A stretch of 63,102 nucleotides of DNA, the filler included, from Kipferlia bialata (lineage: Eukaryota), in assembly GCA_003568945.1 (NCBI GenBank). It is 6 parts of 6 records of this genome, joined end to end, with 100 filler letters (N's around TTAATTAATTAA, not from the genome) between each part and the next. Parts side by side here need not be neighbours in the genome. Positions count along the whole stretch, not along the records: positions 11,548 to 22,989 come from BDIP01001237.1; positions 23,090 to 34,523 come from BDIP01001238.1; positions 34,624 to 46,049 come from BDIP01001239.1; positions 46,150 to 57,564 come from BDIP01001240.1; 2 more parts are not named here. One strand, written 5' to 3'. Below are positions 11,998 to 57,490 of this stretch, one piece after another (position 1 is the stretch's first letter; the number at the start of each line of letters is the position of its first letter). Below the pieces are notes generated by a model that made no database searches, had not been told where the DNA came from, and saw nothing but the letters and a program-made list of their open reading frames with translations. A program made the translations under genes and the position numbers.

Positions 11998-12625
11998 TCA
12001 CTCTGCTGTGTCTATGGGGTTGGGTGCCCCTAGCCACACTCCCATCCCTGAGACTAGGGTCACGTCCTCCTCAAGTCTATCGGCTGATGGTTAGAAGAAG
12101 AGAACAGTGTCATATATATATATAGATGAATATGTGCACAATGGAGAGAGAGAGAGAGGCAAGGGTGACGTCCTCCTCAAATCTATCAGCTGATGGTGAG
12201 ATATATGTGTTTGAATACATAAGTATATGCGCACACAAAAAGAGATTGGAGAGAGAGATCCAAGACATACACATATATATAGTACCTAATAGCTGTGGCA
12301 ATAGCAGTCTGCACATCTGTGGGATATCTATCTCTATATATATGTGTGTATAGATACACAGTATCAGTATCAGTATCAGCTTAGCTGTGGCAATAGCTGT
12401 CTGCACATCTGGGATTTATGGGTTATATACATATACATATATATACATACAAATAGTATACCTAGCAGTTTGGCTGTGGCTATAGCTGTCTGCACATCTG
12501 TTGATGCCGGTGTCTCAGTCTGGTCGGTATATCCAGAGGCTAGGCCGGATATGTCTGTGCCGGTGGAGGAGACCCAGGAGAGATACCTACAGTGAGATAT
12601 ATACATATATATATAGAGAGAGAAA

Positions 12626-12671
<46 letters not shown>

Positions 12672-15577
12672 GGATATGTCTGTGCCGGTGGAAGATACCC
12701 AGGACAAGTATCTGAAGGGTAAATTCAATATCATAACACTTCATAGAAAGAAAGAGACCATCAAAATGTATATTGCCCACCTCCCATATAGAGCTGCATC
12801 TGCTGAGTTTAGTCCCTGTATCTGCCTCTGGTCCCTCTCCCTGAGCCTGAGTGCTGCTCTCTCCCTATCTTCCTCAGTGGCAGAGGGAGGAGGGGCATCA
12901 CTTTCTAGAGTGTAAGTCTAGTTAGATATATACATATATATAGAGAGAGAGGGGGGAGGGAGAGAGAGAGAGAGAACTCTCCCTGTCGTCCTCAGTGAGA
13001 GAAGGGGAGGTAAATCACCCTCTAGAGGTTCAATGGTGGTACAGGAGGACATCAGTATCCTGAGAAGGTGTGGATTATTAGTCAATACCAGACATCTGCT
13101 CAACATATATATGAAAGTACTTGTATATAGACACACACAGAGAGAGAGAAACATCTCCATACCCTGCTGGATCTGTGCACAGAGGTAAGAGCCAAGGACA
13201 CACAATCTGGGGGTAAGGGTGAGGGGAGAGGGAGAGAGGTAAAGACAGAGAGATTCAGAGCACACACAGCCTGGGGTGAGGGAGAGGATTGGAAGTAGCA
13301 GTCTGTGTGACTAGTCTGTGACAAGTGACAAGTCAACTACAATACCTCATGTGGGTGTGCCTCAGTGTAGCTGAGTAAGGCACCTCAGAGAGTCTCTGCT
13401 GGACAACGGACAGGGCCTGGGGTAAGACAATAAGAGGGATAGGGAGAGACATACACACATATACAGACTATACATAAAGGCCCATAAGTACACACATACT
13501 ATATATACCTGTCTGACTGTGCCCATCCTGGCTGATGCCTTACCAGAAGTGGCAGACATATATATATATAAATATATAAATATATATATACACTCTACTA
13601 CATATATACTATACTAATACAAATGCATATGCATACCTGTCTGACCGTCCCCATCCTGACCGATGCCTTGCCAGAAGTGGCAGACCTATATATATACACT
13701 CAATGTACAAACCATATACACACTACACAATACTATATTGATTATATATATATATACTATATATATATATATACACCTGTCTGACTGTGCCCATCCTGAC
13801 CGATGCCTTGGCAGATGTGGCAGAGGTGTCATCCCCAGTGTCACCAAGGGCGGCAGACAATACGGTACCTGTAGATAAGGGCAGGACTCTATACATAAAG
13901 ATAGTTGGTGGAAGAATACACTAACCTGCGGCTGCGTATATGGTCCCCCTGCTGGGTTGGGGTATACTCATACATTGGAAGATATCTATATATGTATATA
14001 CATATATGATATCACTAGTGTCACCCACCTGCGGCTGCGTATATGGTCCCCCCTGCTGGGTTGGAGACTGAGAAGGTGGGGAGAGAGGCACTGCCAATCC
14101 TGAAGGGTCAGAGAGAGAGAGAGAATGATCCAACACAAGTACTAACTGAACGAGTATGTAGATCTCAGGGGTAGAGAGAATGCATGTCTGAGTGAAATGT
14201 ATGGATGCATGCCTGAGCGAGAATGTCCTCAGCAGCTGTGCCTCCCCTGCCCTCAGAGTCCTGCCCCTCTCTCTCCCTCCCCCTCCAGTCCTCATGGCAT
14301 TGGGGACAGCGTCAAGGGCTAGCAGCACCACCTGGAAAGTAAGAGAATAGGAAGATGAGAGGTACTATACTGCTACAGTCTCTAAGAATCGATAGGCTAT
14401 AGTCTTACGACCTGAAGGTTAAGAACGATGAGGTACACAGTGGTGCAACAAATATACTAGGCCTAGTATGCCCTTTCCCCCTACCTCCGGTGGGCATGAG
14501 TCTGAGTGCATAGTACATAAATACAATAGAACATATCACTACCATATATACATAGATATGCATAAGGATATTACCTCAGGTGGGCATGGTGACAGTAGGG
14601 TGTGCATCAGCCTCAGTGTCTGCACCGAGTCGAGTCTGTCTCTGCCTCTACCCTTATCACTAAGGCTGTATATGTGGCAGACTGCACCGACAAGGAGACC
14701 AGAGGCAGAAGGGATGGCCTAGGGTATGACTTATATGAATATATAGACACACACATATATATATAGAGAGAGAGAGAGACTGTATATGTGACAGACTGCA
14801 CCAGCTAAGAGGGAAGGGCCTAGAATTAGAAAGAGAGAGAGAAAGAGAGAGCGAAACAGGTGAGAGATATACAGATACCCACCCTGTGAGCATGCATGCA
14901 GTACACCACATACTGTATCAGACTGAGCAGTCCCAGTAGCTCTGACTGTGTGTTGTAGTGGCAGACACTCAGCAGAGAGAGAACAAGGGAGGAGAGGGAT
15001 CGGGTCAGGGGGAGGGAGAGAAGGCGGGGCATCTTGGCCGCACCCTCCCTGTCTCTCTCTCTCTCTCTCTCCCCTCCCAGCATGAGGCTGGATGTGGTGG
15101 AGAGAGGGGGGACAAGGCCAAGACCACAGCGCAGGGCCTGGGGTGAGGTATATGGAATATTGTATGTGTAATGTGTATACTCTTAGAATAGACAGCGGAG
15201 GGCCCCTTGAAATGAGGGTTAAGCAAGTACATGCTCTTAAGAACAGAATACTCTTTGAGCCGTGATCAATTACTCAAACTTAGACATATATATACACTAC
15301 CTGAGTGTCTACATCCGGCATGTGGCTAGACAGTGACAATGGCATGGCCACTGCTCTGACAGCCAGGGTCAGGGCAAGGAGGTCAGAGGCTGGCACACGG
15401 CCTGCGTCTCTCTCTCTCACCATCTCCCCAGCAGAGGAGAGGGCGTCATGCAGGGACTCAACAGAGGCATATCTGAAGTGTGAGGGTGTGTGTGAGTAGT
15501 AGAGAGAATGAGAGACTTAGAAGGTGGTAAGAGAAGACAAGGCGTCATGCAGGGACTCAACAGAGGCATATCTAGTG

Positions 15578-15615
<38 letters not shown>

Positions 15616-18544
15616 GGGGGGACTCAACAGAGGCTTATCTAGCAAGTAAGTATGTGTGTGTGTGGTATGTGAAACAACACACACAGACACGTGCTCATAC
15701 ATACATGGTGTAATTAAATGTCTAAGATTGATACTCCTACCCCTCAGAAGGATGGGTGTGAACAGGAGCTTCTGTATATATATGTGCGTATGTGTATAAA
15801 TGAACCATACCTCTCACACACAGGACATGGTGTGTCCCTGTCACTGATGCCGCACATGGGGGTAGATAGGAGCTCCTTGCCAGACACAGTGCGGTCTAGG
15901 CTGATTGTTAGGAATTCATATATTCCATACAATATGCATACACATACCGTCCCAGCAGTGCCATGAGTACGTGTCTGGCAGTGGCAAATGGAACACTGTA
16001 CAATAGTATATGCACATATATATACACTCGATATATCTAAACACAGTCAATAGCATAAATATACGTACCGTCCTAGCAGTGCCATGAGTATGTGTCTGGC
16101 AGTGGCAAAGGGAACACTGTATATATATATATACTCTTAATATATACATACATATGTTACTACAGTATAGACAGTATACATACCGTCCCAATAGTGCCAT
16201 GAGTATGTGTCTGGCAGTGGCAAAGGGACCCTGGGCAGATGTATCAGCAGAGGCACTAGTAGCACTGCTACTCCCCTGTGCCAGTAGAGCAGATGCCAAC
16301 ACCACCCCTGCCCCAATGTCGCAGTGCTCAATGCACGACAGGAAGGCACCTGATATTAGTGAATATAGTGAATATTTCATACATATATATACGAACTAGT
16401 AAATAATGTAACAATGTCACAGTGCTCAATGCACGACAGGAAGGCACCTAGTGTCAGTATTAGAGTCTAAGAGTATATATATCATATATATATATATATA
16501 TGTGACACCAGCACCAATGTCACAGTGCTCAATGCACGACAGGAAGGCACCTAAGGTCTGTATGAACGATTCAACACAGATATTCATATATATACATGGA
16601 GTACAATTAGGATTTCTGCATATATTATGCTCCCTGTGGTAGTAGCATACTTACCCTTGAGTGCCTTCTCCGGGTCCTTGGCTGCTATGTGTATATCACA
16701 ATAGTACATTCTGCTATACACATATTACTAAATAGAGTCTAAATACATAAACCCCTTACCCTTGAGTGCCTTCTCCGTGTCCTTGGCTGCCTTTTCAATC
16801 TGCTTCTGCTTCTCTAAGTAGGCCTAGATGGTAAGGATATAGATAACATGAGAAATAGTGTACACTTGCAGTACTGTAGATATGCCACTACATATCCAAA
16901 CGCACCTTGTCATATCTGGACCCTCTTCCAGACATCAGTGTGTGTGTGGTATTCGGTATACATAGAGTCCATATTTACTACCTACACATAACACCATCCC
17001 CGGCTGTCTCCATACTCTGTCTCAGTCTCTGATTCATTGTTAGTATCCTACAATATAGAAATTCTGTACATATACATACCTTGACATCCCCGTCTGCCTC
17101 CTCTTCCTTTGTCTGTGTCTGTGTGTATCTAAGACAGGACACAGCATGGGACACCCAGATCTAGGGGTTAGTACACATAGAGTAGCTTTGAAGTGAAGTT
17201 ATAGTACATGTAGTGTATACTGTACAATTGCATATATACACTACGGTATGGAAGATTATATATTTCTCTTCACATATACCTCGTGTGAGTTGTTATTGTT
17301 TGTCCTTCCCCCCTTTCTCAACATATGTATATTTCAGTACTAACTATTATTACATTAATCTAAGACCTGCGAGTTGTCCTCTCTAGCTCCTGCCTCAGTA
17401 TATGTACAACTACATATATGTATGTTACTACATAAAATGATATACAATATATATGATTTATATACATATATACACATACCTGCGAGTTGTTCTTTGTTGT
17501 CCTGCCTAGCCCCTTCCTCAACAGGGCCATGGGTGTCACATCCAGTCTCTCCTGCAGGGCAGGGGTACGACTGCTGAATACACCTGTTGTTAGGACACTG
17601 TAGTACTATACATATATATATATAGAGAGAGAGAGACATAGTCATGGGTGTTACATCCAGTCTCTCCTGGAGGGCAGGGGTCCTGCTGCTAAAGACACCT
17701 GTGTTAAGTTATGAAGCGAGGCTCTAATGCAGAGTGACAAAATGTATGAGGCGTAAGTGCTCCATCTGTCTAGTAATGTTGTACATCTTATAGTATGAAT
17801 GTATGTATACCTTAGGCGGTGCGTGTCTTCTTGACAGGCACTACCACAGCTACAGGGGTACTATCACACAATATACAATAAGTAAAATATGTATAGATAC
17901 TACATATAGTAGTATACCTAGCGCTGTGCGTGTCTTCTTGGCAGGTGCCGCAGCAGCCACAGGGTTAGGGTCCACATGCTCTAGGTAGTGACTGAGAGAC
18001 AGTACAGTGGGGTCAACACAGAGAGAGGGGGAGAGAGAGAGGGTCTCCCCAGTCACCACACCAAGTAGCTGTCTCAGCACTCTGATGTGTATCTCTCTCT
18101 CCTTCTCTCCCTCTGCACCCTTACTCTCTCTCCTCTTCCCCTCTAGACCCAGCGCTGACCAGGGGTTGCTGGAGGACACAACACCGTGTCCATTACTCTC
18201 ACCCTCCTGAGAGAGAGAGAGAGGGCCTTCTGTCTCACTTGTGCATCCATAGTGGATGGGGCCTAGCGTGAGAGAGAGAGAGAGAGAGGGAGAGAGAGAG
18301 AGAGACTCTTCCATAGTGGACGGGGGAAAACATTAGGGAGGAGAGAGTGTACAGTGGGACAGGAAAAGCAAAAGATATACTGAGCATCATATACTAATAC
18401 ACAGTACCATAGGTACCTGTGAGGTACGGTACTGTAAGTAGTACCAGCTCTCTGACTGTGTCTGAGTCGGTGTACAGGGAATGTCCGGAGAGGACCTGGG
18501 TGTGAGAGAGAGATTCAGGTATATATCTATGACACAAGAAAATG

Positions 18545-18578
<34 letters not shown>

Positions 18579-21500
18579 CCCACCTTAGCAAATGCGGCAC
18601 ACACTTCCAGGTAGTCATCGGGCAGGACATCCTCCTCTCTCTCTCTCTCTCCCGCTGCACCCTTATTCTCTCTCTCCCCCTCCAGTCCTTCCAGTCTCTC
18701 CATGTATGCTATGGACTTGTCTAGCACCGTGACACCCTTCTGCTTCTCCTTCTCAGCCTCTCTCTCTCTCTCTCTCTCCCTCTCCCTCCTGCTCCCACCC
18801 TTACTGCCTCTGGTAATAGGTACAGACACATCGGAGACAGTCCAGGCACGCTGGATGCGTCTCACACGCCTAAAGATTAGAGAGAGAGAGAGAGAGACAT
18901 CGGAGACAGTCCAGGCACGTTGTATGCGTTCAACTCGCCATATATGTCAGGATACACATTCAGAGGGGGAGAGAGGGAGAGAGAGAGACGGTTCAGACAT
19001 ACAAATATAGATACACATGCCTTAGTAGGGGCATCTCAGCCGGGGGTGCCTTGATGGGTGGCATCTGGATACTACTCATATATAGTATACATATACATAC
19101 TATACTCTAAGTATATATATACATGTATAAATGCATATACATGCCTAGGCAGTGGTATCTCTGCAGGTGGTGCCTTGATGGGTGGCATCTAGATAAGAGT
19201 ATATTTATATACTCTTATATATATAGTATGACCACATCATAGTATACATAAATTGTAAACCTGCATACATATACATATATAGCATACAATATGAAGAGAG
19301 TACCTAGGCAGTGGTATCTCTGCAGGTGGTGCCTTGATGGGTGGCATCTGGTTGAGGGTGTCCAGCACACACTTGGCAGTCGTGCCCTTACGGTCAGTAC
19401 TCTCTACTACTATTGATATCCATACACATATATATACATGTACTACAGTGTGGTTGAGGGTATCTAGTACACACTTGGGGGGGGGGTGCCCTAGAGGTAA
19501 ATGGTTGCCACAATATTATAGTACATATATATGAATACTATGTATATATGCAGTATGGTAAGGTAAGGATAATGTGTCTAGTGCACACTTGGGGATGCCC
19601 TCGAGGTAAGGTCCCCCGCTCTCTCTCTTTACACACTCATATATATGTCTATGTCTGCCAGCTCACTCACTCTCTCTCTCCCCCCTCCTCTCTGCAGGTA
19701 ACAATACGTATGGTTACTGTATATATATGTATGTACAAGTATTAGACTCCTCACCTCAATGTCTGCCAGCCCACTCACTATCTCCCTCTTCCTCTCCTCC
19801 TCTGTCTTGGGCACAGGGTGTAGGGGGGGGACTAGGAGCCAGGCCCGCCTCTCGATCTGGAATGAGAGAGAGTGTGAAGAGAGAGAGAGAGAGAGAGTAA
19901 GGGTGCAGCGAGCCAGACACACCTCTCGACTCTAGAATCAGAAGGATGTACAAATATATTCCATATGTAATCATGCATATGTATCAAAAGTATACCTGCT
20001 TCCACATAGTTTTGGACAGTAGCTATGTACTCTTGGTAATATAATATTTTGGTATATACATATATATATATACATACTCATATACTTATATATAGTACAT
20101 ATAGTACATATATTAATATATATATATATAGAGATATTAATATATATATAGAGAGATATTAATATATATATATATAGAGAGAGAGAGAGATAGAGTATAC
20201 CTGCTCCCACACTGTGTTCGACACTGCCCTAAAGATGTATGGACTGGCACCCCGCATACATATAATTATACATATATACATATACTTATATATATATGTG
20301 GCATTTAGTACATGGATAAAAATATATACACTTGCATGTATACATTATACCTGCTTCCAGACTGTGTTACTCACTGCCTCGAATATGTATGGACTGGCAC
20401 CCCTCATGCCCTGCCTCGAGGCCTGACGCTGGGCAGTCTGGATACTATGGTAAGACAGGAGAGAGAGAGAGAGAGAGAGAGAAGAAGAAGAAGAAGAGAG
20501 AGAGAGAGTAAGAGAGACATGCCCTCCCTGGAGGCCTGTCTCTGGGCAGTCTGAATACTAGGATAAGACGAGTAGATATATATATATATATATATATAGA
20601 ACACTGGACAGTCTGGAGGTTAGGGAGAAGATATGTAAATGTGTAGAGAGAGAGCCAAAACACACAATAGTACTACTCATACCTAGCTATAAACCACTCC
20701 AGCACTGTGAGTGCCGTGTATCTGGCTATGGGCACACGGCCAGCGGTGCAGCAGATCTAGAGTCAGAGAGGGAGAGAGAGAGAGAGAAATAGAATAGCGA
20801 TTGCAGAGACACAGAGAGATTGAAGAGTGTATACTATGATATGATATGTAATGTGATTGCCAGTACCAAATTTACACCCATATATGAACTTAGAACATAT
20901 AGGACATACATATTTTTCAATATATATATATATATACAGTATCAGAGACTCATATACCTGTATGAATGTCTTGATGGCAGCTAGTGCTACACTGTGCATC
21001 AGGGCATGGCTGTCGGTGGTGTCTGAGGTTATATAAGGGTGTAGAGAGAGAGAGGGAGAGAGAGAGATAGTAAGGGAGAGAGAGAGACTGTGCATCAGGG
21101 CATGGCTGTCAGGGGTAACTACAGACAATAGAATATGAATATACAAACATAGAAGAATGCATGAAGCGGTAGTATATATATACATACACAAATGAACACT
21201 GATATATAATACTGCATAGAACTAGACACACCTGACACCAGCTCATCTGCTATGGTCATGTACCCATAGTCTATATATACTCTCTCTCTGTGTATATAGA
21301 TCCACATTCACTCCCATATATCCTATATATACTATACCTGATACCAGCTCCTCTGCTATGGTCATACATCTGACGGCGGCTGTGGAGGCAACATCGATGG
21401 TGGACTGGCCAAGGCCTTGTGGTAAGTAGTCATATATATATGTGTATAGTATAGTCGTATTATTATAGTATAGTATTATTGGGTTTGAGTGTTTAGTGTC

Positions 21501-22858
21501 CATTTGATTGTTGTAGTGAATGTAATACTGATGGTATTAAATAATACGTACTGAGTATGCACTGTGCATGCATGTAACTGGTGACCAGGGTGGCAGCAGA
21601 GGCAAAGGGGTCAACGGGGGTGTCAACAGTAGTGGTGTGACCTATAATGAGAGAGAGAGAGAGAAAGAGAGTGGCAAAGGGGTCAACGGGGGGTATCCAA
21701 TGTGGTGGTATGGCCTATGGTGAGGAACAGAGAGAGATAAAGAGACTTACTCTCTATATAGAGCATATGTCCCACCTGTATGGTAGTCTGTGGTTGGCAC
21801 TGCATACTGGGGTCCGGCCTGTACCACTGCGGACAGGGCATGGGCCAGGGCCTTGTCTCTAAGGTTAGAGAGAGAGAGAGAGAGAGAGAGACTGCCTGTA
21901 CCACTGCAGACAGGGCATGGGTCAGGGCCTTGTCTCTAAGGTAAGATATATATATATATGTATGGAGAGAGAGAGAGAGAGACAGAGAGACAGTAGACAG
22001 GGCATGGGCCAGGGCCTTGTCTCTTGGGGTTAGAGAGAGAGGGGGGGAGAGAGGGGGAGAGAGAGAGAGAGTCGACATAGCTTGGGCCAGTGCCATATCT
22101 TATGGGTAAAGACTATTGAAATATATAATATAGGGATGCACAGAAGTGGTATTCTCACCATAATGCTTTATGAGTTATAATGGCTGCCTATTGGGGTGAG
22201 GTGTCCAATGACAGTATCACTACCAGATTAATAGATGAGGTATACTTAAAACACTATACGAAAACTCGAAATACATACACTACCTACTGATAGAGGTATT
22301 CTATCACTACAATGATCAGTACTGATATAACTATATTACCTACTGATTGACGGGACGTGTCTCATGGCCGCGGCCCAGAGGGTGGGAGAGGCAGTGTGCC
22401 TGGAGTCAGAGAGAGATAGAGGGAGTAGGAGAGATAGCCGAGTGTGATGGAGGCAGTGTACCAATCAAAGAGATAGACACATGGCAGGAACCCTATATGT
22501 GTAGCTAGTATAAGCACATCGCTCACATCTGTATACCAGGAGTGTTGATCGCTGGCAGGACCTGACACATATACACTCCTCTCATACTCCACAATAAATA
22601 CACTACATATACATACTATACACTATATCATTACAATATACCTCTGTATCCCATCCACGAGTGTCTTTGACCTATGCACTGGCAGGGCCTGGCACACACA
22701 CTTTGCTTACCCTTCACCATATACACTTTATAGTATACACTATAGTATATACACTAACCTCTGTATCCCATCCACCAGTGTCTTTGACCTATGCACTGGC
22801 AGGGCCTGGCACAGGGACAGAGCCACAATGGCCTCGGCAGAAGGAGTGTGGTTGACTC
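11998..22858 (-). CDS. Large multi-exon hypothetical protein, 5' partial, probably alpha-helical
   Basis: More than 25 GC-rich exons bounded by GT/AG among microsatellite introns, e.g. VNHTPSAEAIVALSLCQALPVHRSKTLVDGIQR, GLGQSTIDVASTAAVRCMTIAEELVS, GAFLSCIEHCDIGAGVVLASALL. Last exon ends LGAPNPIDTAE-TGA at 11998-12000. No family recognised. Confidence 0.7.
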
Positions 22859-35740: not shown

Positions 35741-35782
<42 letters not shown>

Positions 35783-37077: not shown

Positions 37078-37109
<32 letters not shown>

Positions 37110-38159: not shown

Positions 38160-38194
<35 letters not shown>

Positions 38195-39486
38195 CTCCCT
38201 ACACCTCTTATGCATAGGTCGATGCTTGTCCAGGCACTGTTGGAGCCTCTGTCCTGCTGGCCCTTGTTAGATACGTCCACTCCTGTGCTGCCTTTGACAT
38301 GCACCAGTCCACCATAGACACGGGATACACTCAGGTATATATATGTGTATATACATGTAGATACATATACTATACTATACTATACTACTATACTACTATG
38401 GGTATATATATATGTATACTGGGCTGCCTTTGACATGCACCAGTCCACCATAGACACTGGTTATACTCAGGTATATATATAGATACATATATACATACAT
38501 ATAGAGAGGGTGTAGAAGATAGATGTGGATATACTCTAGATATAAATAGTAGAGTATGTGCTGCCTTTGACATGCACCAGTCCACCATAGACACGGGATA
38601 ATAGTAGAGTATGTGCTGCCTTTGACATGCACCAGTCCACCATAGACACGGGATATACACAGGTATGTAGGAGTATTCCCAGACTCTCTCTCTCTTTCTC
38701 TCTGTGTGTGCATGTGGATACCCATACTAACCATTAGGTCCACGTGTCCCTGACCCAGTACATTGACACCTCTCTCTCTCTCTCTATATATATATGTATA
38801 TTCATACTATATACATACACACACATATATATATGCATGTATGTTCTAACCCTTTAGGTCCACGTGTCCCTGACCCAGTACATAGACATTGAGGATGACA
38901 AGGAGACCAAGAGGCACATCATGTTCCTGAGGTATGTATCATATTATATATATCTGTATACAGTGAATGTAGGAAACAGTCATCAGAATGGCACGTGTCA
39001 ATATGGATATACACGTATAATCAATATTGTTAATTATACTATACTTGGTACGACAAGGAGACCAAGAGGCACATCATGTTCCTGAGGTACCATGGACAAA
39101 TGCTATATATGTATATATATATAAGTATACATATATATCTGTGTATGGACATTGTGGATGACAGTATCAGTATCAGTGTCAGGTTGGATTATGTTCCTGA
39201 GGTGTCACTTTGCATATTTCACATTCATTCCAATTAATTATCCATCTAGTGAAGACATAACTATTATGACATTTGTACATATATCACCTTCAGGAAGGGT
39301 CTTGAGCTGTATACAGTGAATATCTAATAGTATGCATATTGTATACGTTAATTGTATGTATTGAATTGTATGTATTTGTATGTATATTTGTGTCTCACCC
39401 TCAGGAAGGGTCTTGAGCGTGAGCACCACAACAGGCAGAAGGAGAGAGAGAGACGGCTAGAGGGGGAGGAGGAGGAGGCCCAGTGA
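34695..39486 (+). CDS. Multi-exon hypothetical protein, 5' partial
   Basis: Exons such as PLIPDSGMFADEEVTESTEEED, STFLANCLKSMTYAADTVMDVRK, VRYVHSCAAFDMHQSTIDTGYTQ|VHVSLTQYIDIEDDKETKRHIMFL|RKGLEREHHNRQKERERRLEGEEEEAQ, ending TGA at 39484-39486. Confidence 0.65.
36469..36521. other. Intra-scaffold assembly gap
   Basis: 53 N without the spacer motif. Confidence 0.95.
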
Positions 39487-41578: not shown

Positions 41579-44500
41579 TTACCCCAGTTCCTCTCTGCAC
41601 ACCAGTCTGGGCCTTTGACCTAGTGTTGATCGCTGCCGACCCCCTTTGACCTTTGCAGACCCTCTTTGACTATTGTTGACTCTCTTGTCGTCCTGGGACT
41701 GTGGGGTGGATGGGATAGAAGGGGTTCTCAGACGGAGAGTGCCGCCTCTGAGCCACTCAGAAACCCTGGACATTAGGGGTGCAAAGGGAGGAGAATTCAA
41801 TTACAACATAAATATATACAACATAGAATAGAATACAACCAATGTACAATATACATAGAGTACAACCTTCTTTACAACATAAATATATACAACATAGAAT
41901 ACAACAAATATACAATATACAGTGTCCATACCTACTCTTCTTCTGCTTGGACTCTAGCTGGGGCAGGGTGAGAGCTGGGGGTGAGGTATAGACAGTTAGT
42001 ACCCACATAGAGAGAGAAAGAAATGATATCTTGTGGTAATGAATATTACTAATACTATTATTACTAATAATCCAGTAGCAATACAACTAACCCTTAAGTA
42101 TCCTCTCCCCTGCGTCAAAGACTCTGCCTCTGGACACGGCATCGGAGATGACACCTGTGAGTGAGATGCTATATGACGTATACAACTATATATGTATATA
42201 CATGCTATATATATGCTATATAGTATATGTACTCTGCCTCTGGACACGGCATCGGAGATGACATCTGGGGGTGAGTTATAGTCAGACATGATGTATAGCA
42301 ATTATATTTGTGGTCATATACAAGATGTGTAGCGATAGTACTCTGCCTCTTACACAGCATCTGCGGTTACTAACCGCCGGTTAGGCGAATTTGTATATAT
42401 ATACGAATATTCAAACATACTAGTTGTTGCTAGAATGTAGCACATATATATATTGGGGTCACAGCACAGTGAGATACCCACCGAATAAACGAATATCATC
42501 AGTACTGCTAATATATATATATATATTTATATAGTTATATAGTGTCTGTATATACGCACTCTGCCAGGTGGGGTCACAGCAGAGTGTGGTCACACTGCCT
42601 ACCACGATCAGTCTGTCCTTGGCCCTAGTCAGTGCAACATTCCTAGGGTGAGATGAGGTCATATATATATATGCATATATATAAAGAGAGAGAGATATAG
42701 AGAGTGAGATGTCCTTGGCCCTGGTAAGGGCAACATTTCTATGAGTAAGGGAGATACATAACATGAGGGAGAGAGAGACACATATGGATAGAGAGAGAAA
42801 GACAGTTGTGTACGTACATTCTTCTAGGATCTCTTGTGAACCCCAGGCTACCTCTGCTGTTGGACCTCACAGTGGTGTAGATGACAATGTCGGCCTCAGT
42901 GCCCTGAGATAAGAGAAGGTATATAGTACTCTAGTATAGTATTGATAGTTATATAGTATATTGCATATATATAGTATGCCAGTGGTGTAGATGACAATGT
43001 CAGCCTCAGTGCCCTGGGGATAAGTAAGAGGTATAGGTATATAGTCCAATATACAAGAGCATTGTATCTAGTATTGTGTTATATAGTATATAGTACAATA
43101 TATTTATATGAAATATTACAAAATACAAGTGGTATGGAAGTGTAGATGATAATGTCTGCCTCTGTACCCTGATGATAAATGTGGAAGACAGTATATACTA
43201 CTCATAATATATACTCCTACTATACAAGACGCCATCTCCCCATATCTATCTTGAAGACTCATATGTATGTACCTGTGACCCATCTATTGTGGACACTGTC
43301 ACTCTGGACAGGGTCCCACTCACATACTATAACACCTTACACTCATATATATACAATACATTTATGTCTATAGTGTACCTGTGACCCATCGATAGTGGAC
43401 ACCGACACTCGAGATAGGGTGTCAGTCCAGTGGGGCTCCTGGGGGATAAGAACACAATAACCTACAGTAGAGGGATCTGTGGCATACAGAAGTGCACACC
43501 TATATCTGTATATAACAATGAATACCTTGTTCAACAGATGGGAGATGAGCCTAGTCTGTGCCGGATAGGGGCATAGTACCAGCGTCCCCATATATATATA
43601 AATATATATATAAGTCTACACCTATATTTGCATATATCAATAAATACCTTGTTCAAAAGATGGGAGATGAGCCTAGTCTGTGCCTGATAGGGACACAGAA
43701 CCAGCATCCCCATATATGTACATATATATATAACTCATACCTTGTTCAACAAGTGCGATATGAGCCTTGTCTGCGCCTGATAGGGACATAGTACCAGCAC
43801 CTTCTTCAGGAGAGAGGGAGAGAGACAGTCCAGCAGAGATAGGAGACCCAGGACACAGTTGGCCTGGTGCCAGTTGAAGATGGACGTGCCGTTCTTATCC
43901 TACAGTGAGTATATGAAGATAGAGTAAAGAACACACACATATATTCATATATATACTATTAATACGGTACCTTCTCCTCCCTGCCATCAATGTCCAGCAC
44001 TGAATAGTACAGAAGAGTACCGTGAATGAACACTGTATATATCTACATATAGATATGGATATCTACATATGTAGTGTATACTCTTCTAACCCTACCTTCT
44101 CCTCCCTGCCGTCAATGTCCAGCACAGTGTAGTGTTGTAATTCATACAAATGACCACTGTATCTATATACACACATATAAGTCATATCGCTAACAACTCT
44201 ACCTTCTCCTCCCTGCCGTCAATGTCCAGCACAGTGTAGTGCCCCAGTCTGGCGCAGGATATGGGCTGTATGCCCTGGTGCAGAAGTGCCCTGTCAACGG
44301 CATCTGTCACACCCTCTCTCTCTCTCTCTTCTTTAGTACTCTTGGTACCCTTGGAGTCCTTGGGACTGGTAGAGATACCAGCGTCCACCCCGTTCTTAAT
44401 CTTCCCCCCGTAGAAGAGTAGGTTGGGCGTCCTCAGGATATCTGGGTGCATACGGTACTGGGTGTCGAGGAGAAGGACCTATCGTTAATACATAGTAAGT

Positions 44501-46049
44501 AATCATATCTGTTACTAAGTTACAATATATACATATACTATATATGTACTATATGGGTGCATACGGTACTGGGTGTCCAGGAGGAGGACCAGGAGGTGAA
44601 CTATACATATATAATCTAGTGTATACATTCATACTGTATGGATATAATAGAATCATACGTATACTGCATGGATATCACGCTCCACATGTGTGAGAGTCTA
44701 GAGACAGATGATACTACGCGCCAAACCACAATTCATGATATACGCACCTCTCCCTCTCTCTTGACCATCCTCTCCATGAGTGACACTCTAAATGCAGAGG
44801 ACACGTCGGACACAAGGGTGGGTGGTAGCTGGTTGTGGTCGCCAAACAGACAGACAAAGGGAGCAGCGAGGCCAAGGAGGGTCTCCCCCTGGATGTTAGA
44901 ACGAGAGAGAGAGAGAGGAAGAGAGAGAGAGAGGGGTGTATCCTGAGAGTCGCATGAGAGTCTATATTCGAGGTGAGTGTTAGACATATCCTCTACATAG
45001 TCACACAGAGTCATACCTCCGAGGTCTGTCCTGCCTCATCCACGTACACGGCATCAAACGAGTGGGCCAGCTGTGACAAGAGAGACGCCAACGATACCGA
45101 GTGGAGAGACGTGAATGTGCTAAAAACCACATCACTTCTGTAGAGGGCATCGAACTTATCGTCGCCCTTAGGAACATAGCCCGGTCTGCTAGCACCAGAG
45201 ACCCCTCTCTCAATGGCACAGTCCTAAGGTCAGTGTATGTATAATAGTACATCATCAGTAGTATCCATAGTACCAGTATCACTTCCCAAGTATCAGTATG
45301 TAGGGTTTCTGGGGTACATATCAGTGGCAGTATCATAGTGAAACACAGCATATAGTCTAACCTTGGCAACTGTATATATATATATATATAAAATATACAT
45401 AAATATATGAATATATATGACTAACCTTGGCAACTGTGCTGAGGTGGAAGGGACGCAGCCGGGGTCTTACAGACTCAAACACACCCACACGCAGAAGACG
45501 CACGGGTTTAGCTGGGATGAGACCGATTGAGAGATACAGTAGTAGCAGATAACAGAGGGTAATACAGATATAATTAATATACTGTATAGCGTATTAAGTG
45601 AACATATATAATACTATACTACGCGATATATACCTGGTTGCATGGCGTCTGCCCACTCCTTACAGGCTATGAGGCAGTTATCAACGGCCTTGTTACTCGA
45701 ACACACAACCAGTACCCTAGGCCGATCACGCGGTGTCTGCTCCTGTCTCTTCCTCACACGGTCTGGAGTCATTAGAGACTACTCAATGGAATCGCGTAAT
45801 ATTACTGTGATATATGGTGAAGTATACCTGTCTGGGAGTACCGCCTCCCCCCCTTGTTCAGCACTAGGGAGAGAATGCTGGCTGCCAGGGTGTGGGTCTT
45901 GCCAGTGCCAGGGGGGCCATGCACCATCTGGAGTACGGGCTGGGGTTAGTATTATTAGTTAGTTGAGCATTAGACATAGTATCCACAACACAGCACCTGT
46001 CTCTCCGTGACTGTGTCGAACAGGGAGTATATCCTGGATACGGCACTAT
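41579..46049 (-). CDS. Multi-exon Upf1/DNA2/senataxin-like superfamily 1 helicase, 5' partial
   Basis: Motifs in order: HGPPGTGKT (~45897-45923), VCSSNKAVDN, VYVDEAGQ, FGDHNQLPP, LDTQYRMHP, LCPYQAQ, STIDGSQ|GTEAD, RRM|NVALTRAK. The C-terminal end is uncertain (41579 or 41286). Confidence 0.92.
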
Positions 46050-48033: not shown

Positions 48034-48621
48034 TGAACGGCATTGTCACAATGGTTGCAGACTCTATGTACGTCACTAATAGATTTCTACCAGTATCAAG
48101 ACAAGTGGGGACTTGGCTGTACTTTACTGTCATTGAATAGCTAGAATATTAACAATACTGAGAGGTGATGTTTGAAAATTATGGTTACACTACGGCGGGA
48201 AGAGTTAGCAGTAGCGCGTAGACGCATAATACAGGGCGTCTACTATCATAATGGTAGGAATCAATTGATTGTGCAGCGATTCACCTCTATTGGTGTTCAT
48301 ACAAATGAGTTCCATTCTCGCAAGAGACATTCTCTCTTCTCAAGCATTGAGCCACTTCTCTCACCACTGCAAATGTCAGTGTGTGAAGCTCTATTTTCAC
48401 TCCTCCACCTTCAGCAACACTGGACATTGAACTTACACTACTGATATGCTCTCCCTCCCATAATCTACTCTATTCGTTTTCACAAATGTGTCACATATTA
48501 CAGAGAGAAGTAACTCACATATAGTAAGTGTATCACGACTATAGCTATTAGTCCGATATGCTCTTTCTCACATCCTCCACACTCACTGTGAGTAACATAG
48601 CGACTATTACGACTATCAATG

Positions 48622-51145
48622 TTAGTCTGATATGCTTTGTCTCACGTCCTCTACCGACACTGTGAGCAGCATAGTGAGGGGTGTCTCTGGGAAGTCGGGG
48701 TGGAGGGAACCCAAAACCAGCACTGTGTCTGTGGTGAGAGGAAACTGCAAGATAGCCATGTGAACACGCACTCATTCCAAAATAACCTCAAGGGTCAATA
48801 ATGTATATGTTGAGAACAATGAACACAAACCTAGGAGAGTATTGAGGGTAAAGAAGGCCCTCCTCGCTAAACATATATCATATACATACTCCTACGATAG
48901 GACCTATCACCTTCTCCGAGTGTGCATGAGGTGGTACAGGAATGTATATATATGTATACATGACAATATGTATATATAGAGAGAGATACAGATACCCACC
49001 CTCTCCGAGTGTGCATGAGGCGTAGTGGTATACGTATATATATACTTATATATATACTAATATCATCTTAAAGATACTGTTAACGATATACAACTATATG
49101 TATAGCAATAGAGATACCCACCCTCTCCCAGAGTGCATGAGGTGTAGTGGTACAGGTACTCCTCTCCCTCGTAGGGTATGGCTGCCAGCTGCTTGCCCCA
49201 CATGTGCCTAAGGTCAGAGAAGAGGATATGGAGAATATCAACTATCAAAGGAGAGGAAACAGAGACTGTGCTATGATTCTGCCGCTGAAGACACAGAGTG
49301 AGTTAGGAGAAATACAATTTGAGAGAAATAGACTACCTGTCACCATGATATTCATAAACAGCCGCCTCGCAAATAATACTCAGTGTACTCATACACTATT
49401 GTGTACACATTACCTCTCAGTGTCGTATCCATAGACTCAACAACAACCGAAACAAGTAGTATAGTATACATGTATAATGTGTTGTATATTTACCTCGCAG
49501 TGTCGTATCCATAGACTGCCTCCTCAGTGAAGCCAAGGGCAAGGTTACCAGGTAGGGCCTGCTAATGAGACTACTATCGATACTGTATATAAATTATGTA
49601 CTTCTGAGGATGTTGATAAATGAATATGGTATAGTAGAAAGTATTATGGTGAACCCAAGAGCAAGGTGACCAGGTAGGGTATGTTACTAGTAGTGAGAGT
49701 ACTTCAGACACATATAGATTATGTACTTGAGTTTGTTGATATATACTTTATCACGCGAACTAATACCCAGAGCAAGGTTACCAGGTAGGGCCTGTTAGCA
49801 TGAGAAGAATATAGGAGATACTGAAAGAGAGTGAAGCCAATTGAAAGGTTTCCAGGAAGGGCCTATTTGTGAGGTAACATGTGTATGTTGGACACACTAA
49901 GAATATGAACAACTAGAACCCGTTCTGAACATGTATGGGTACGTGTGTATGTATTGGTATTGTGCAGGTGGCAGATTCAACACAACGACACGGCGATCCT
50001 AGAGGGTAACTGAAAACAACAGCACTTCAGCCTTCAATATGTGTGGATTATTTGCATATAGTGTACATACTAACCTGGAACCCATTTGGTCCCCCTTTGG
50101 GACCACCGAGGGTAGTCCAGACACATGGGTGTTAGAAGATGTATCAGTATCAGTATCAGTGATACTGATGTAAATATACACTCCAAAAGATACAACCAGG
50201 GTGTAGTCCAGACACCTGGGTGTTAGAAGGTCATATGTAGACATGTGTATATAAATATATATTAATACAATAGTATATGTAGAAATGAGACTGCAGAGAT
50301 CAGTAGCCAAGGAAGAAACGGAGGCAGCCCAGACACTTGGGTGAAAGGGTAGGATGCATAGGAAGTCGGAATAGTTACCCATAACTAGTGAGGAGTAAGA
50401 AGCAAACGACATACCTTCAGGTGATCTGCAGAGGGCAGAGCATACTCTATATGCAAACGCACATATACATAATCAGTATATAAGTATACTATACACAGAG
50501 TATATATCTACATCTTATACCTGCAGGTGCATCAGCAGTGGACAGGGCATACTCTGCGTGGTTACCATGAATATAGTATACATATATACTATATATACTA
50601 TACACAGTATAGGAAAATCATATTACCCTCAGGTGCATCTGCAGTGGGCAGGGCATACTCTGCATACTATATACATTCACATATATATACTATATACAGT
50701 GTATATGCCATATGTATACTATACACTGTATATGGATCTCTATATAGTATATACCTCCTGGTGCATCTGCACTAGGCAGGGCATACTCTGCGTGGTAGTC
50801 ACCATATATACAATACACATATGTATCATCCTATATATACTATACATTATATATACTATACACTATAATACACATACCTGCAGGTGCGTCAGCAGTTGGC
50901 AGGGCATACTCTGCATGGTAGTCACCAAAGGCATCATAGGCATGGCCCACAAGATGAACACGGCTTGGGTTAGAGACTATAAGAGAGAGAGAGAGAGAGA
51001 GAGTCACCAAAGGCATCATAGGCATGGCCCACAAGGTGGACACAGCTGATAGTGAGAGACGAGAATATGAGAGAGAGAGAGAAAGAGAGAAGTAACACTG
51101 GCATGGCCCACAAGGTGGACACGGCTAGAAGGGTAAGAAGAGACT

Positions 51146-51187
<42 letters not shown>

Positions 51188-54100
51188 CCGAAGGCATCAT
51201 AGGCATGGCCCACAAGGTGTACGTGACTTGGGTTAGAAGAGACTAGAAGAGAGAGGGAGCGAAAGAGAGAAAGAGAGACTTAAGACGTAGACATGGTCAC
51301 AATGTGCAGACAGCTGCTAGGTGAGGGCAGTCAGAGTTGGTAAATGACAGTGAAGTATGCATGTCAGTCCAGCACACAAAAAGGCATGTCACCCAGGAGA
51401 TAGTGAGAGAAAGAGTATTTTACCTGTTCGAATAGCCTACTCCGAACATGGTCCTCTTGAACTGTCCATCTGTGACCGGCTCGTCATCCTCAGCAATATA
51501 GAATATGTGTATATCATAGACTATCTATACTACTAGATACCTGTTCGAATACCCGATTCCGAACATTGTTCTCTTGAACTGACCATCTGTGACAGGCTCA
51601 TCATCCTCAGAGAGAGGTGGTGGGTTGGCACAGCGCTTGTGTTAAGAAGCTAATCATCATATGATATGTATTTGTATAATGCTGTAAATAGCTCTATTTC
51701 TCTGTGATACATCAGATACACACCTTATTGTCATGTCCCTTGTGTTGCATATCATACATACTCTATAACACGCCATACGTCACTAACAATATAAATAGGT
51801 GCAATATCACAAATATATGTGTAACTATGAATATACCTTCCAGGACATGTCCCTTGTGTTGCATATCCATGCCTGGAGGCACTTGTCCTGGGTCAGGTTG
51901 TACTTGCCAAGGATGACAAGGAACTAGGGTCAGCCAAACATCATCTGTATTTCTTATATATATATTGGTATTTCTTATATATACTAGTAACTAATATGTA
52001 TGAATGTTTAGTGAGATTAGATATATACCTCTGTATCTGATATGACCCCCGCCTTTCTAGGGCATAAACCATAAATATTCAAGTATATTCCATATTCTAT
52101 ATATATTTCTATATTCTTAGTATTTACATTCATATATACATATGTAGTCACATACTTCCGTGTCTGATATGGCCACTGCCCCTCTAGGGCATACATGCAT
52201 ATATATACCAGAATATTCCATTCTATATATAATTCTATATATGAAGTATTTACATTCATATATACGTGTATAGTCAATATATGTCACATACCTCTGTGTC
52301 TGATATGGCCACTGCCCCTCTGAGGCATAATGCATTCACACATATATATACTGTACTATATTGATATATATGTATAATATATATATAAATATCTGCATAT
52401 GTAGTATATATATATATATGTACCTCTGTGTCTGATATGGCCACTGCCCCTCTGGGGTATCTGACAGTGGGGCCCTGGGAGTGAGGGTATATAAATATCA
52501 ATTGCTATGTTGTATATAGAATATAGTATATTAGATAATAAACCCACCCCACATGGTATGCTCACTGCGCTGCCTCTATCTCTAAAAGTATACGTGAGCT
52601 AATATATATACTATATAGACACAGTGTATGACTCTGTCTCTCTGTTTGTCTCTCTCTCTATACATTTAGTGTACATAAATATATACTATGTAAACAACAT
52701 CTCACCTCAGCTCCACAGGGTACAGCCTCTATCCACTCCTCTGTCTCCAGTGAGTACACATGCACACATGGGGCAGACACACATATATAAATATATACCT
52801 ATATATATTACTAGGCCGAGTATGTATATATTGATACCTCACTGCCACATGGAATGGCCTCTACCCACTCCTCTGTCTCCAGTGAGTACACGTACACAGA
52901 TGGGGCAGAGATACCACCCTCTCCCTCTCCCTCACCATCTTCTTCGGGCTCAGTGTCCTCAGCTGTGGATAGCTGAGAATGAATATTAGTATTACAGATA
53001 AAGTATCATAATAAACAGTATATTACTGATATTAGTTACAAGGGACATTCAGTGTTCGGTTAAGTTCAATACTTCCCATACCTCATCCTCCTGTGTCTTG
53101 ATATATCAATATCTGAGAATATAATGAGTATATATGTGAAAAGCATACACCATTCAGTATCCGGTATATATATCACTATATATCACTATATATCACTATA
53201 TGTCACTATATATCACTATATATCACTACATATCACCTCATCGTCCTGTGTCTTGATGACCCTGCCCCCGTCAAAGACATAGACCTGATCGATTAAGAGT
53301 GAGTAATAGTATATATATCGCATAAGTATGATACATAGACCTGGTCGAGTAAGAAGGTGGGAGAATCAAGATATCGCGAAAGTATGAGACTTGTATGACC
53401 TGATTGCGTTAGAGTAACTCTGACTCAGACACACGATAAGAGAGGGTGAATAAATAGCTGCACACACACCTTGTCTACCACACACACTCCAGAGGTATGT
53501 ATATATATACTTCCATATATACTTACATATATGTGTATTGTAATACATCTACGTCACTACTTAATAGTAGCACTGCATCTACATACACACCTTGTCCCCC
53601 AGACACACTCCAGATGCCACGCCACTGAAGGGTGCAGAGATGGCCTTGGTTTCCAGCTAGGGAGTGAGATAACTGGAGAGATATGTATATATGTATAGCA
53701 TTAACACAGTATCTTCCTTCTTGTCCCATAAGAGTGTGCCAATGTACATATATATGTATAATACTACCCACATATATATAGTATATATATAGTATAGTCC
53801 CACTGAACTACTTGTTACCTCTCTGTCCTCTGTGAGTGTGGCTGTGTACACTGTGTTGGGGGTGCCTTTGGTAGGGTACTCCTCGTTCCAGCCTTGTGGG
53901 TAAGTATGTATATACACACAAATACTTATAGGTCTGGAGAGAGAGTGAACTGGTAGAAGTAGTGGAAGGGTACTCCTCGTTCCAGCCTAGATGAGAGAGG
54001 AACGAAAAGAGAGATAATCACACGTATCAGACAAAAAGACGGAATGGGTAAAGTATGTATATACATATACATAGTTAAGATGATATGGGACAGAAGCCCA

Positions 54101-54224: not shown

Positions 54225-54260
<36 letters not shown>

Positions 54261-54472: not shown

Positions 54473-54506
<34 letters not shown>

Positions 54507-57490
54507 TCCTGATGCAGCTGGGGGTGAGGCATATGGGTACATTTATACACTCATATATATATATATATATGTATGTATGTACAGAGAGAGAGAGAGGGAG
54601 AGAGAGACAGTCTTGATGCAGTTGGATAGTTAGATGAGAGGGATACCTAAACATATACTCTGGATCCTGATAGTTTTACAATTGCCCAGTCAAGGAAAAC
54701 TAAGAATGACGCAAAAGTCTTTGGGCGTGATTGACACACATAGGAGTAACATGCAATTAGTAACTGTGTACTACAATCAGGGTGAAATGATACTTGTCAC
54801 AAAACGTGTAACGTACTCGTGGCAGAACTCGGGCCTCTCCACAGACAGTAACCGGCACTCACAGATCTCACCACTATCTCCCTCACCCTTTGACTCTGTC
54901 CCAGTCTGTGCCTTGGCTGGTGGTTAGCACACTGTAAAACGTATATATATGTTGCTCTATATACTATTTGGTGTAAAATTACTTACTCTCCACTAACTAA
55001 AAAATTGGACATAGACAGTGAAGTTAGACAAGGATTAGTGGAGGACAGGTTGAAACTTCCAGAATGTATTTCTTTAGTGTAGATAGATATAGATAGATAT
55101 AGAGAGATATAGAGAGATATCGGTACACAGACGTATATTTCCAAAGTTACCTGTCTTTGTACTGGTAGGGAAACTACTACTACTAGGATCGATAGGATAT
55201 ATAGAGTATGGTATATATAATGTATATACATATATAATGTATGTGTATACCTGTCTTTGTCTGGTGGGGACACTTGTAGGGTCTGACCCCGAACTGTCTG
55301 TGTAAGGAATATGTATAAAGAGGTATATATATATATATATACAATGTAGTAGCAATTAGCAATACATGTGATGTATATAGAGGTATATATACATGCACTT
55401 GCCTGTGTATCTCAGTGCAGGCATCGCAGTTGAGAACGATATTCTTCTCGGCCTGAGACATTAGTATATTCAATATCAGTGTTCTATATACACTCTATTA
55501 GATATACTCCGATTATCCAAGTAATTACTAATGAGTGAATTGTATTATGTTTGGATTACAACCGTGCGTCTCACCAAATATGTATATATATCTATATCTA
55601 TATTCACCTCTGATACGTGTGGGTACAGACTGCCATAGAACACTCTTTATAAATATATATGAATGCATATATTGTACCAAATATTGTCTTATAAGTATGC
55701 ATGTACGTGTGTTCACCTCTGACACGGGTGGGTACAGACGCTCTGCCATGGAACAAGGGCGCGTGCATGTGGTGAGTAAAACGAGGACACACACACATAT
55801 ACATACACATATATATAAACATATGAATATATATGTGATATGTATATATATGTATGTATTAGTGTATATAGATAATAGAGAGAGAGGGTGTGTAGCACTT
55901 GTGGTGAGTAGTAACAGGATGACACATATGTATATAGATATAAGTATGTATAGAATAATAATATCAGAGAGGGTGTGTAGGATAAAATAATATTAATTAA
56001 TACACACAGATACATAGATTACAGAGAAAGGGGGCGGGAAGCACGCGTAGAGTCACGAGGATGAAAAGAGTATCTAACACCAATAATCCCCTGTACACCC
56101 AGTAAATATGTCTCACTACTTCCATACCTACGGATATGAGGCCACATCTGCCAGCTGCCTGCTGTCTATCGGCCTGAAGTCAGAGTAATGCACTAATAAT
56201 ATAGTATGTATTAGTCAATATAGTGAAGGTGAGACTATTAAATGTCCAGAGTATAGTATTTGTATGTACACATCTCTGCTCCGCAAGTGTGTACATGTGT
56301 GTAGTGTGTAGGTGATAGTATATAGTATATGAACAGTGATGACTGTATCCTCTCCGCAAGTGGCTAATGGTTGGGGACTCTGCCACAAAGACACATGTAT
56401 ATATTCATATATCATTATTAGCTTGCTATTACTATTGTTATAATTGTAATTCTGTTATTACTACAGTATTATATTACTATTATAGTGATAATTGAATTAT
56501 TGCCTCCTCTTCACTGGCCAATGGCTGGGGACTCTGCCACTGTGATACACATACAATACACTATTAGATTACCTATTAATGCTATTTACTGTACTAATAC
56601 CACTATTACTACTCTTACCTCCTCCTCACTGGCTATTGGTTGGGGACTCTGCCACTTGACTGGAGGCCTAGGCTGCTCCTTCTTCTTAGGTCTCAGACTC
56701 ACATCTATGGAGAAAAGGCCTAACGGTGAGACGCTGAGACGCTGAAACGCTGAGATACCTTTACTATAGGGTACACGTAGGGTATACCTGTGACAGGAGG
56801 AGCTCCCCACACTGTCTAGGAAACAGGCAGCCCCTATCCCACACTATATATATGAGTAACGCCCATCTCTATACATATGTGTACATTATTCTAAGAACAT
56901 GTAGTTTGTTCTATAATATGATAGAGTGTATACCTGTGACAGGAGGAGCTCCCCCCGGATTGTCCAGGAATGAGTATCCCCCTGGGATAGGGACGGGTGG
57001 GAATGGCAGGCCTGCTGGCCAGTTGTCGGGGCGGGGGGGCCTAAAGGTAAGATCAAGTAAGGGGAATATATACAATAGTATATATATGTATGAATGTATA
57101 TATATAGTAGTAGTGTACATATATATACACATGTGTGTGTATATGTCTATATCTGAGGAGAGAGAGAGTGAAAGAGAGAGCGAGAGGAAGGAGATAACTC
57201 TGCCATCTTCTGGGGACATTGCAAACTAACATGCAGAATTATTGTTAACATATACATATATATGATAGAGAGAGGAGCCAAAATATGTATATATATACTG
57301 CTTTAGAACTCACCCAGCTCTGGGAACATTGCAGGGGGCATTGACGGCTTGGGATCCAAAGGTGATGGAAGGGACAGGGGGGGCTTGGGTGAGTATAGAT
57401 ATTACTATGATTACATATATATATATGTGTGTATAGTGTGTGAGAGAGAGAGAGAGAGAGTGGGACCCAAAGGTGATGGAAGGGACAGGG
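48622..57490 (-). CDS. Multi-exon Kelch-like protein with Pro-rich and Cys/His-rich N-terminal part, 5' partial (could be two genes)
   Basis: Exons VYVFDGG, VYVYSLETEEW, RGAVAISDTE|FLVILG..AWICNTRDMSWK, VYGYDTAR|HMWG. Last exon FPLTTDTVLVLG..VRQSISD-TAA at 48622-48624. Upstream exons include RPPRPDNWPAGLPFPPVP, LNCDACTEIH and RPYKCPH. Confidence 0.7.
53167..53236. repeat. 10-bp minisatellite (TATATCACTA) x ~7
   Basis: Direct tandem array inside an intron, with 1-2 substitutions. Confidence 0.9.

Follow-up and report, generated by a model that had tools for sequence, protein, structure and literature searches.

Partial copies of exon ends, here termed echoes, lie beside most exons of four intron-rich genes of Kipferlia bialata, and they differ from the adjacent live exons mainly at synonymous positions. 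The window analyzed is a 63,102-nucleotide stretch of this genome (assembly GCA_003568945.1) composed of six contigs. The four genes reside on three of these contigs, and all echo counts given here are four-gene rather than genome-wide figures. The echoes are genuine: each repeats, head to tail, part of an exon that includes one end and the splice site there. We consider it probable, with modest confidence, that most of them are fragments of other, once-functional alleles that were left by unequal recombination through birth, refilling, and decay. An allelic source in general, including one acquired in a single capture event, appears likely. K. bialata is described in the covered part of its genome report as a free-living, intron-rich fornicate, the one such organism, with a published draft assembled from short reads (PMC5874029).

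In total, 76 live exons were modeled. The gene at 11998..22857 (minus strand; g2, KIPB_005335), whose public record is partial and lists no Pfam family, has 29 live exons and 36 echoes, and its model agrees with the public protein at 1105 of 1114 residues. An unnamed plus-strand gene at 35040..39486 (g4a; modeled from 35171 to 39486) has 13 live exons and 21 echoes, where the exon model is a prediction from an open frame and splice signals only. A superfamily-1 helicase (AAA_11/AAA_12) is encoded on the minus strand at 41580..45939 (g4b, KIPB_005340) by 13 live exons accompanied by 12 echoes, and our exon model contains the public helicase protein exactly. The fourth gene (g5, KIPB_005342, 48548..57500, minus strand), which carries Kelch-type repeats, has 21 modeled live exons and 33 echoes. 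Its model agrees with the public protein except for three added exons, one exon that is longer by 30 nt, and a different start. Note that one odd acceptor is present in the g5 model.

Each exon was aligned to its two flanks, and any match with a score of at least 30 was counted as an echo. This cutoff yielded 105 echoes (132 matches at a score of at least 24), and none of 871 control alignments between exons and nonadjacent introns reached it. At least one echo was found for 58 of the 76 exons, as expected from the original prediction that partial exon copies occur in four genes on three contigs. The predicted polarity was likewise borne out: judged by midpoint, 104 of 105 echoes conform, with exon-start copies located upstream and exon-end copies downstream. 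The expected exon end alone is reached by 94 of the 105 alignments, and a single alignment touches both ends as a whole-exon copy would. After three internal matches were dropped, 102 echoes in 72 families were retained for later counts. Each family holds one to four copies per side, as had been proposed (49, 17, 5, and 1 families with one, two, three, and four copies, respectively). Echo lengths, which had been put at 20 to 70 nt, mostly range from 12 to 72 nt, and the median echo covers 41% of its exon. The repeating unit, comprising an echo and its spacer, has a median length of 106.5 nt (quartiles 91–122; 100 of 102 echoes), and a test of unit-length versus spacer-length constancy gave a slope of −0.44. 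Control genes from five regions on the other three contigs, with models taken from a predictor, contain one echo in 70 exons. The median intron length of these control genes is 87 nt versus 271 nt in the echo genes, and they also have less TA repeat.

The arrangement is well represented by a g2 family at 15942..16552 (minus strand), in which the live exon (16349–16184) is preceded by two echoes carrying an acceptor and exon start (16505–16552 and 16412–16449) and followed by two echoes carrying an exon end and donor (16063–16113 and 15942–16014). Both downstream echoes share one inner breakpoint, and all of the echoes in this family are skipped by the RNA contig described below. The largest family, in g5 (50409..51232, minus strand), has three echoes upstream of exon 50963–50878 and four downstream of it, the downstream units being 106 to 128 nt long. 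Direct head-to-tail copies of this kind, in which one breakpoint lies in the exon and the other in the intron, are what boundary-crossing tandem duplication would produce.

Differences between echoes and live exons are concentrated at third codon positions (85 of 1126, 66 of 1127, and 246 of 1126 at positions 1, 2, and 3, respectively). Among the changed codons of the 105 echoes, 188 are synonymous, 108 are replacements, and 4 are stops, in agreement with the earlier impression that most changes are synonymous. The exon–echo comparison that had been proposed as a check, run here for the four genes, gave a dN/dS of 0.17 (dS about 0.35–0.37, dN 0.062). The value was again 0.17 when only the nearest echo of each of the 72 families was used (bootstrap 95% interval 0.13–0.23), and the silent bias is present in all four genes, with per-gene values of 0.05 (the helicase gene) to 0.19. 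The companion check on echo–echo pairs gave a dS of 0.32 and a dN/dS of 0.21. For a dead copy, the expected ratio is only about 0.5 because the live copy keeps drifting silently too. Differences at 138 of 2180 0-fold sites and 167 of 617 4-fold sites depart strongly from this ratio (p = 3e-11). Simulated dead copies subjected to a similar detection rule gave dN/dS values of 0.51 to 0.57, with a minimum of 0.33 in 100 runs, and simulations of an allele followed by decay gave 0.15 to 0.22 versus 0.23 observed.

The direction of change separates two components. Differences at 4-fold sites are symmetric between echo and live exon (55:44), and at 0-fold sites the echo more often has AT where the live exon has GC than the reverse (63:30, p = 0.0008). 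Echoes are close to homogeneous in their silent divergence (X2 112, df 98), as selected allelic variation would be, versus a dispersion of 1.5 to 1.75 under a dead-copy model. Thus, the echoes carry two layers of change, a symmetric selected divergence of about 0.25 to 0.3 together with a thin layer of directional decay (about 0.03 to 0.06). Mutation bias was ruled out as an explanation, given that decay runs toward AT at 0-fold sites and 4-fold differences are symmetric. The proposal that the live exon has been recoded away from frozen copies is not supported, given the same symmetry, and echo–echo differences are as synonymous as echo–exon differences.

Some further expectations about these substitutions required correction. 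Frameshifts had been thought absent, but 11 of 13 gaps are frameshifting, all at least six columns from an alignment end, and four stop codons are present. Some of these lie near breakpoints, where alignments over-extend. Replacements had been described as often conservative, and this is so, although the effect is mild (p = 0.037). Both of the reported serine switches between TCN and AGY codons were confirmed. The g5 last-exon family (48548..48728, minus strand) combines a serine TCG/AGT switch with a leucine CTG/TTA switch: the echo at 48548–48603, downstream of the exon at 48728–48622, is changed at 6 of 16 third positions and includes the stop codon without a donor. The claim that farther copies are more diverged is true of 12 of 23 multicopy families, but 8 show the reverse and 3 are tied. 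Private 4-fold changes in these families number 22 in far echoes, 8 in near echoes, and 11 in live exons (p = 0.02), and the copies are therefore not fully exchangeable. One case of rising divergence is the g2 family at 21776..22100 (minus strand), where three echoes (21894–21941, 21996–22024, and 22074–22100) lie upstream of live exon 21858–21776 and each runs into a (TC)n tract. Heavier decay toward the junction than toward the splice site, a gradient predicted under interallelic exchange, was not found between echo halves in a comparison of low power (0-fold 47 of 896 versus 54 of 881, p = 0.47; 4-fold p = 0.11).

A minority of echoes have a simpler history. Echoes with no third-position difference are more numerous than expected (23 of 99 versus 10), which indicates that some echoes are same-allele duplicates. 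A young same-allele case occurs in g4a (35316..35483, plus strand), where the two echoes upstream of exon 35416–35483 are identical and their flanks are closely related. Apart from this minority, the echoes lack the identical starting sequence, decay at all sites, and similar flanks of plain duplication.

The sequences that flank the echoes are highly diverged. Echo and live flanks are 0.59 to 0.63 identical, and unrelated introns are 0.54 identical. A simulated same-molecule duplicate aged like 0-fold sites retains a flank identity of at least 0.73, and a fit to the observed flanks requires approximately 0.2 indels per site on top of substitutions. Flank identity is uncorrelated with silent divergence (rho 0.01), and echo–echo flanks are no closer than echo–live flanks (0.62 versus 0.64). 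The splice dinucleotides are nevertheless largely kept, with GT in 50 of 63 downstream echoes and AG in 34 of 39 upstream echoes. Median acceptor scores are 6.4 bits for echoes, 7.9 bits for live exons, and −1.6 bits for other intronic AG dinucleotides. Conservation of the echo AG is similar to that of 0-fold sites, whereas neighboring bases are conserved at only 0.3 to 0.6. Together, the flanks and signals suggest two sequences that diverged while both worked as exon ends.

Evidence regarding the origin of the copies also comes from their junctions. A TC/GA tract lies at the end of 24 of 39 upstream echoes versus a background of 187 in 3061 (6%). In 10 of 23 multicopy families, the copies have an inner breakpoint in common (null 13%), and yet 19 silent and 5 replacement changes separate the pairs that share a breakpoint (dS 0.32, dN 0.02, dN/dS 0.07). 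Copies that have one junction in common but whose content has changed under selection point toward refilling from live sequence, and a junction that is kept while its content changes is the expected outcome of interallelic unequal exchange or gene conversion. For example, two downstream echoes (13635–13684 and 13503–13556) of live exon 13868–13777 in g2 (13503..13868, minus strand) have the same breakpoint and differ from each other mostly at synonymous positions. Similarly, the echoes at 43644–43706 and 43522–43583, downstream of live exon 43899–43741 in g4b (43522..43899, minus strand), have their breakpoint, flank, and several silent states in common against the live exon.

From these data, we infer an allelic source and three steps by which echoes might form. 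An echo would be born when the DNA breaks, or a replication fork stalls, at a (TC)n/(GA)n or TA-rich tract and synthesis restarts approximately 100 nt back, generating a boundary duplication of about 105 nt. With one breakpoint exonic and the other intronic, the polarity would be fixed and one whole exon would be left. Refilling would occur when two very diverged haplotypes meet, either in meiosis or through parasex. Because their introns would barely align, exon ends of 20 to 70 nt would be the sole homology, and the echo of one allele could pair with the live exon end of the other nearly as readily as the proper partner could. The old junction would then be kept in an unequal exchange or conversion that inserts the exon end, once-live splice site, and intron flank of the partner, and this exchange would add or remove a unit. 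During decay, AT-biased substitutions, indels, and stops would accumulate for as long as the unit is neither refilled nor lost, with selection eliminating any echoes capable of being spliced in.

This allelic model would require a silent diversity of approximately 0.25 to 0.3, or donors from sister lineages. The silent diversity of Schizophyllum commune is given as 0.20, below that level, in the covered part of one report (PMC4576712), and crossovers in hypervariable Schizophyllum fall in exons according to the covered part of another (PMC4209137). No second allele was seen in the DNA-run contigs, which bear on one window contig and drop rare variants. In the portion of a metamonad survey covered, Ku is absent, homologous recombination is the main form of break repair, and fornicates retain two Dmc1 proteins and not Rad51A. 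The relative Carpediemonas is predicted there to be haploid with meiotic genes, and neither sex nor parasex is reported as observed in Metamonada (PMC8516963). Mismatched joints are stabilized by Dmc1 (PMC6719624, in part). Of the sources previously suggested, captured pieces of diverged alleles fit best, whereas homeologues were not found. Searches with the exon-encoded proteins of g4b, g5, and g2 matched only their own public records, at 100% identity (1 of 318, 1 of 27, and 1 of 814 candidates, respectively), which is weak evidence on homeologues. No second isolate was found, and two metagenome scans confirmed no relative among 30 and 119 matches to the pattern, respectively, a result that carries no information on diversity.

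A bolder version of the model, which we consider rather unlikely, is that echoes belong to a genome-wide system for swapping exon ends. They would be selectively maintained donors, an archive of splice-site and exon-end modules from other alleles, and Dmc1-type recombination that tolerates mismatches would swap these modules into the live exon, with introns replaced wholesale. One haploid genome would then hold several alleles per exon, and the population behind them would be the most diverse known for any eukaryote.

The main rival to the allelic reading dispenses with other alleles and invokes second-order selection. In this scheme, deletion or conversion between repeats spaced 100 nt apart would often carry echo sequence into the live exon of the same lineage. 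Lineages with damaged echoes would then have fewer offspring and be purged, and the remaining echoes would stay in frame. The shared breakpoints described above do show exchange among copies, private changes in the nearest echoes still lean silent (11 of 421 0-fold versus 8 of 121 4-fold sites, p = 0.04), and the reliance of metamonads on homologous recombination is in accord with the idea. However, if exchange were rapid enough for selection to act on it, silent positions and flanks should have become uniform, whereas dS is 0.35 and the flanks are nearly unrelated. The frameshifting gaps and stops are also difficult to reconcile with purging, and a very large population size would probably be needed here too. 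We therefore regard this explanation as unlikely.

Capture in a single step, without refilling, has an even smaller chance of being correct. Repair of an intron break would begin with one-ended invasion of the other haplotype and finish by end joining, or a sister species would have supplied the sequence. Such capture shares its allelic source with the reading that we prefer and accounts for the polarity, the silent bias, the microsatellite junctions, and the foreign flanks with intact splice signals. Independent events should share breakpoints less often than in 10 of 23 families, unless the tracts fix them, and one donor lineage should produce two sequence types, yet echo–echo dS (0.32) is near echo–live dS (0.37). 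The absence of Ku-type end joining in metamonads also weighs against it.

Use of the echoes at the RNA level, whereby alternative or noncanonical splicing or template switching swaps exon halves and places echoes under coding selection, is improbable. The low dN/dS and the retained GT/AG and branch motifs would be consistent with it, as would the reduced K. bialata spliceosome, for which no snRNA candidates were found in the covered part of the relevant report (PMC6679479). Two runs from one sample contain the window; neither is recorded as RNA, but one is RNA-like. The eight listed pieces of a 2465-nt contig from this run sit exactly where the live-exon lengths predict, from position 18262 in g2 to the last exon, with no other letters. 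This contig skips introns holding 21 echoes and reveals no new intron spliced between copies in g2, although minor isoforms are invisible in contigs. Three g2 bins that consist mainly of echoes have no RNA contig cover, an absence that is given no weight here. New splice pairs in register occur at chance (6 of 88 breakpoints, null 6.6), and GTR is depleted after upstream echoes (7 of 39 versus 46%), as would follow if inclusion of an echo in the transcript were harmful. Branch motifs ahead of downstream echoes are depleted only to a nonsignificant degree (2 of 63, p = 0.10). Frameshifts, stops, and the g5 echo that copies a stop codon without a donor also argue against coding use. Thus, of the suggestion that echoes swap exon halves, the splicing component is unsupported, and DNA recombination survives as part of the preferred allelic reading, as a by-product and not a programme.

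Stacking of divergent haplotypes or strains by the assembler, also raised in the original prediction, is highly unlikely. Units near 105 nt resemble a short-read length, and many junctions touch simple repeats. Nevertheless, the DNA run contains 94% of sampled words, and among its contigs the best 8 of 801 records align over 562 to 1076 nt with zero or one mismatch at a depth of 424 to 493. Depth in these eight pieces, all from one window contig, is even over echo and exon and equal to that of an intergenic stretch, and for 11 of 36 g2 echo–live pairs a single piece spans both members. The listed pieces show no variant letters on live exons, although assembled contigs drop rare variants, and neither half depth nor missing junctions were seen in these short-read contigs. 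Nor would an intact haplotype contain a shortened exon fused to intron sequence. The assembly may itself have been built from this run, which is hence not an independent sample, and the support therefore tests the assembler and not the sample. Finally, plain dead tandem duplicates beside a live exon that alone drifts or is recoded would explain the layout, as originally noted, along with the AT-ward decay and the few identical echoes with related flanks, but are ruled out as the whole story by dN/dS values of 0.17 versus about 0.5 expected and, for echo–echo pairs, 0.21 versus 0.5 to 1, and by the lack of directional recoding.

A literature search at the level of listings and abstracts of openly available papers, in one case over 15 of 8,156 hits, found no description of the echo pattern. 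In the covered accounts of intron gain by boundary-crossing tandem duplication, one breakpoint is likewise exonic and the other intronic, and the acceptor and exon start are duplicated head to tail. There, however, a single event yields a new intron, whereas echoes create none, accompany 58 of 76 exons on either side and up to four deep, and differ as if both copies had been selected. Echoes behave like a combination of boundary-crossing tandem duplication and gene conversion, known processes acting at surprising scale and regularity. In S. commune, too, allelic divergence leaves exons as the main islands of homology (PMC4209137, PMC4576712, each in part), but the events measured in a cross were equal allelic crossovers, with one complex conversion tract only and no partial exon copies reported in the parts covered (PMC4209137). 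The exchange in Kipferlia would instead be unequal and would leave physical fragments.

Three other phenomena bear a resemblance. Mutually exclusive tandem exons are whole neighboring copies with both splice sites that are spliced in and show low dN/dS. Echoes share the proximity, the low dN/dS, and the intact splice signals, but have one splice site, cover less than half of the exon at the median, and are skipped in the g2 transcript tested. Silent cassettes, such as those of Borrelia vls, Neisseria pilS, and trypanosome VSG genes, are partial unexpressed copies beside expressed sequence that generate amino acid variation in surface genes by gene conversion. Echoes may similarly serve as recombination partners, but they vary silently, are decaying, and occur at most exons of genes as unrelated as a helicase and a Kelch-type gene. 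Haplotype stacking in assemblies gives adjacent copies that differ like alleles. Echoes, in contrast, have even depth, no listed variant letters, and read-derived contigs across their junctions.

If echoes are allele fragments, then one genome holds a population sample, and echoes would offer a record of, and direct handle on, sex and extreme diversity in fornicates. The implied silent divergence of about 0.3 would surpass the 0.20 given for Schizophyllum in the covered part of the source (PMC4576712), and the fragments would be physical evidence of interallele recombination in Metamonada, where sex or parasex has not been directly seen according to the portion of the survey covered (PMC8516963). 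Echoes would also provide a route to intron lengthening in the one intron-rich fornicate, and in one transcript a reduced spliceosome ignores a splice-site decoy approximately 100 nt from the real site. On a practical level, echoes flag exons that gene predictions have missed and can also mislead predictors, as many were taken as exons in the first predicted model.

Echo counts (an echo being a partial copy of an exon end with its splice site, located in the intron flanking the live exon) were based on alignment scores of at least 30. In the echo-rich gene g2, weak, older echoes at 22440-22569 (-), with scores of 24-28, lie past the clear ones, and therefore our echo counts represent minimums. 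Three related copies of an exon end, flanked by TA sequence, are present at the start of a contig (34690-34965, +) but were excluded from every echo count because the live exon and its frame could not be assigned. Among the control genes, which comprise 70 exons in five predicted gene regions on the other three contigs, the sole echo is a copy of an exon end plus donor in a predicted membrane-protein gene (27330-27425, +).

Within an echo of gene g4a, an exact 56-nt tandem duplication at 38545-38655 (+) indicates that same-molecule duplication continues today.

The model of g5 (KIPB_005342, with Kelch-type repeats) includes three exons, at 55251-55742 (-), that have no counterpart in the public protein. 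Because two of these own echoes (55603-55630 and 55148-55175, both -), echoes may mark exons missed by annotation. For an exon within 50075-50342 (-), CAT rather than CAG directly precedes the full-length form, and CAG is retained in the next upstream echo. In the public protein, an internal AG 30 nt downstream is taken as the acceptor, and 10 residues are absent.

Two modelled introns carry GC donors, at 14212 and 55402 (both -), the former agreeing with the exon lengths of the 2465-nt RNA contig that matches g2. Adjoining g5 is an intronless Kelch-type reading frame (47014-48033, +) that a single in-frame stop divides into two ORFs. A predicted gene at 6829-11333 (-) has no echoes, and its motifs make it a candidate class III nucleotide cyclase.
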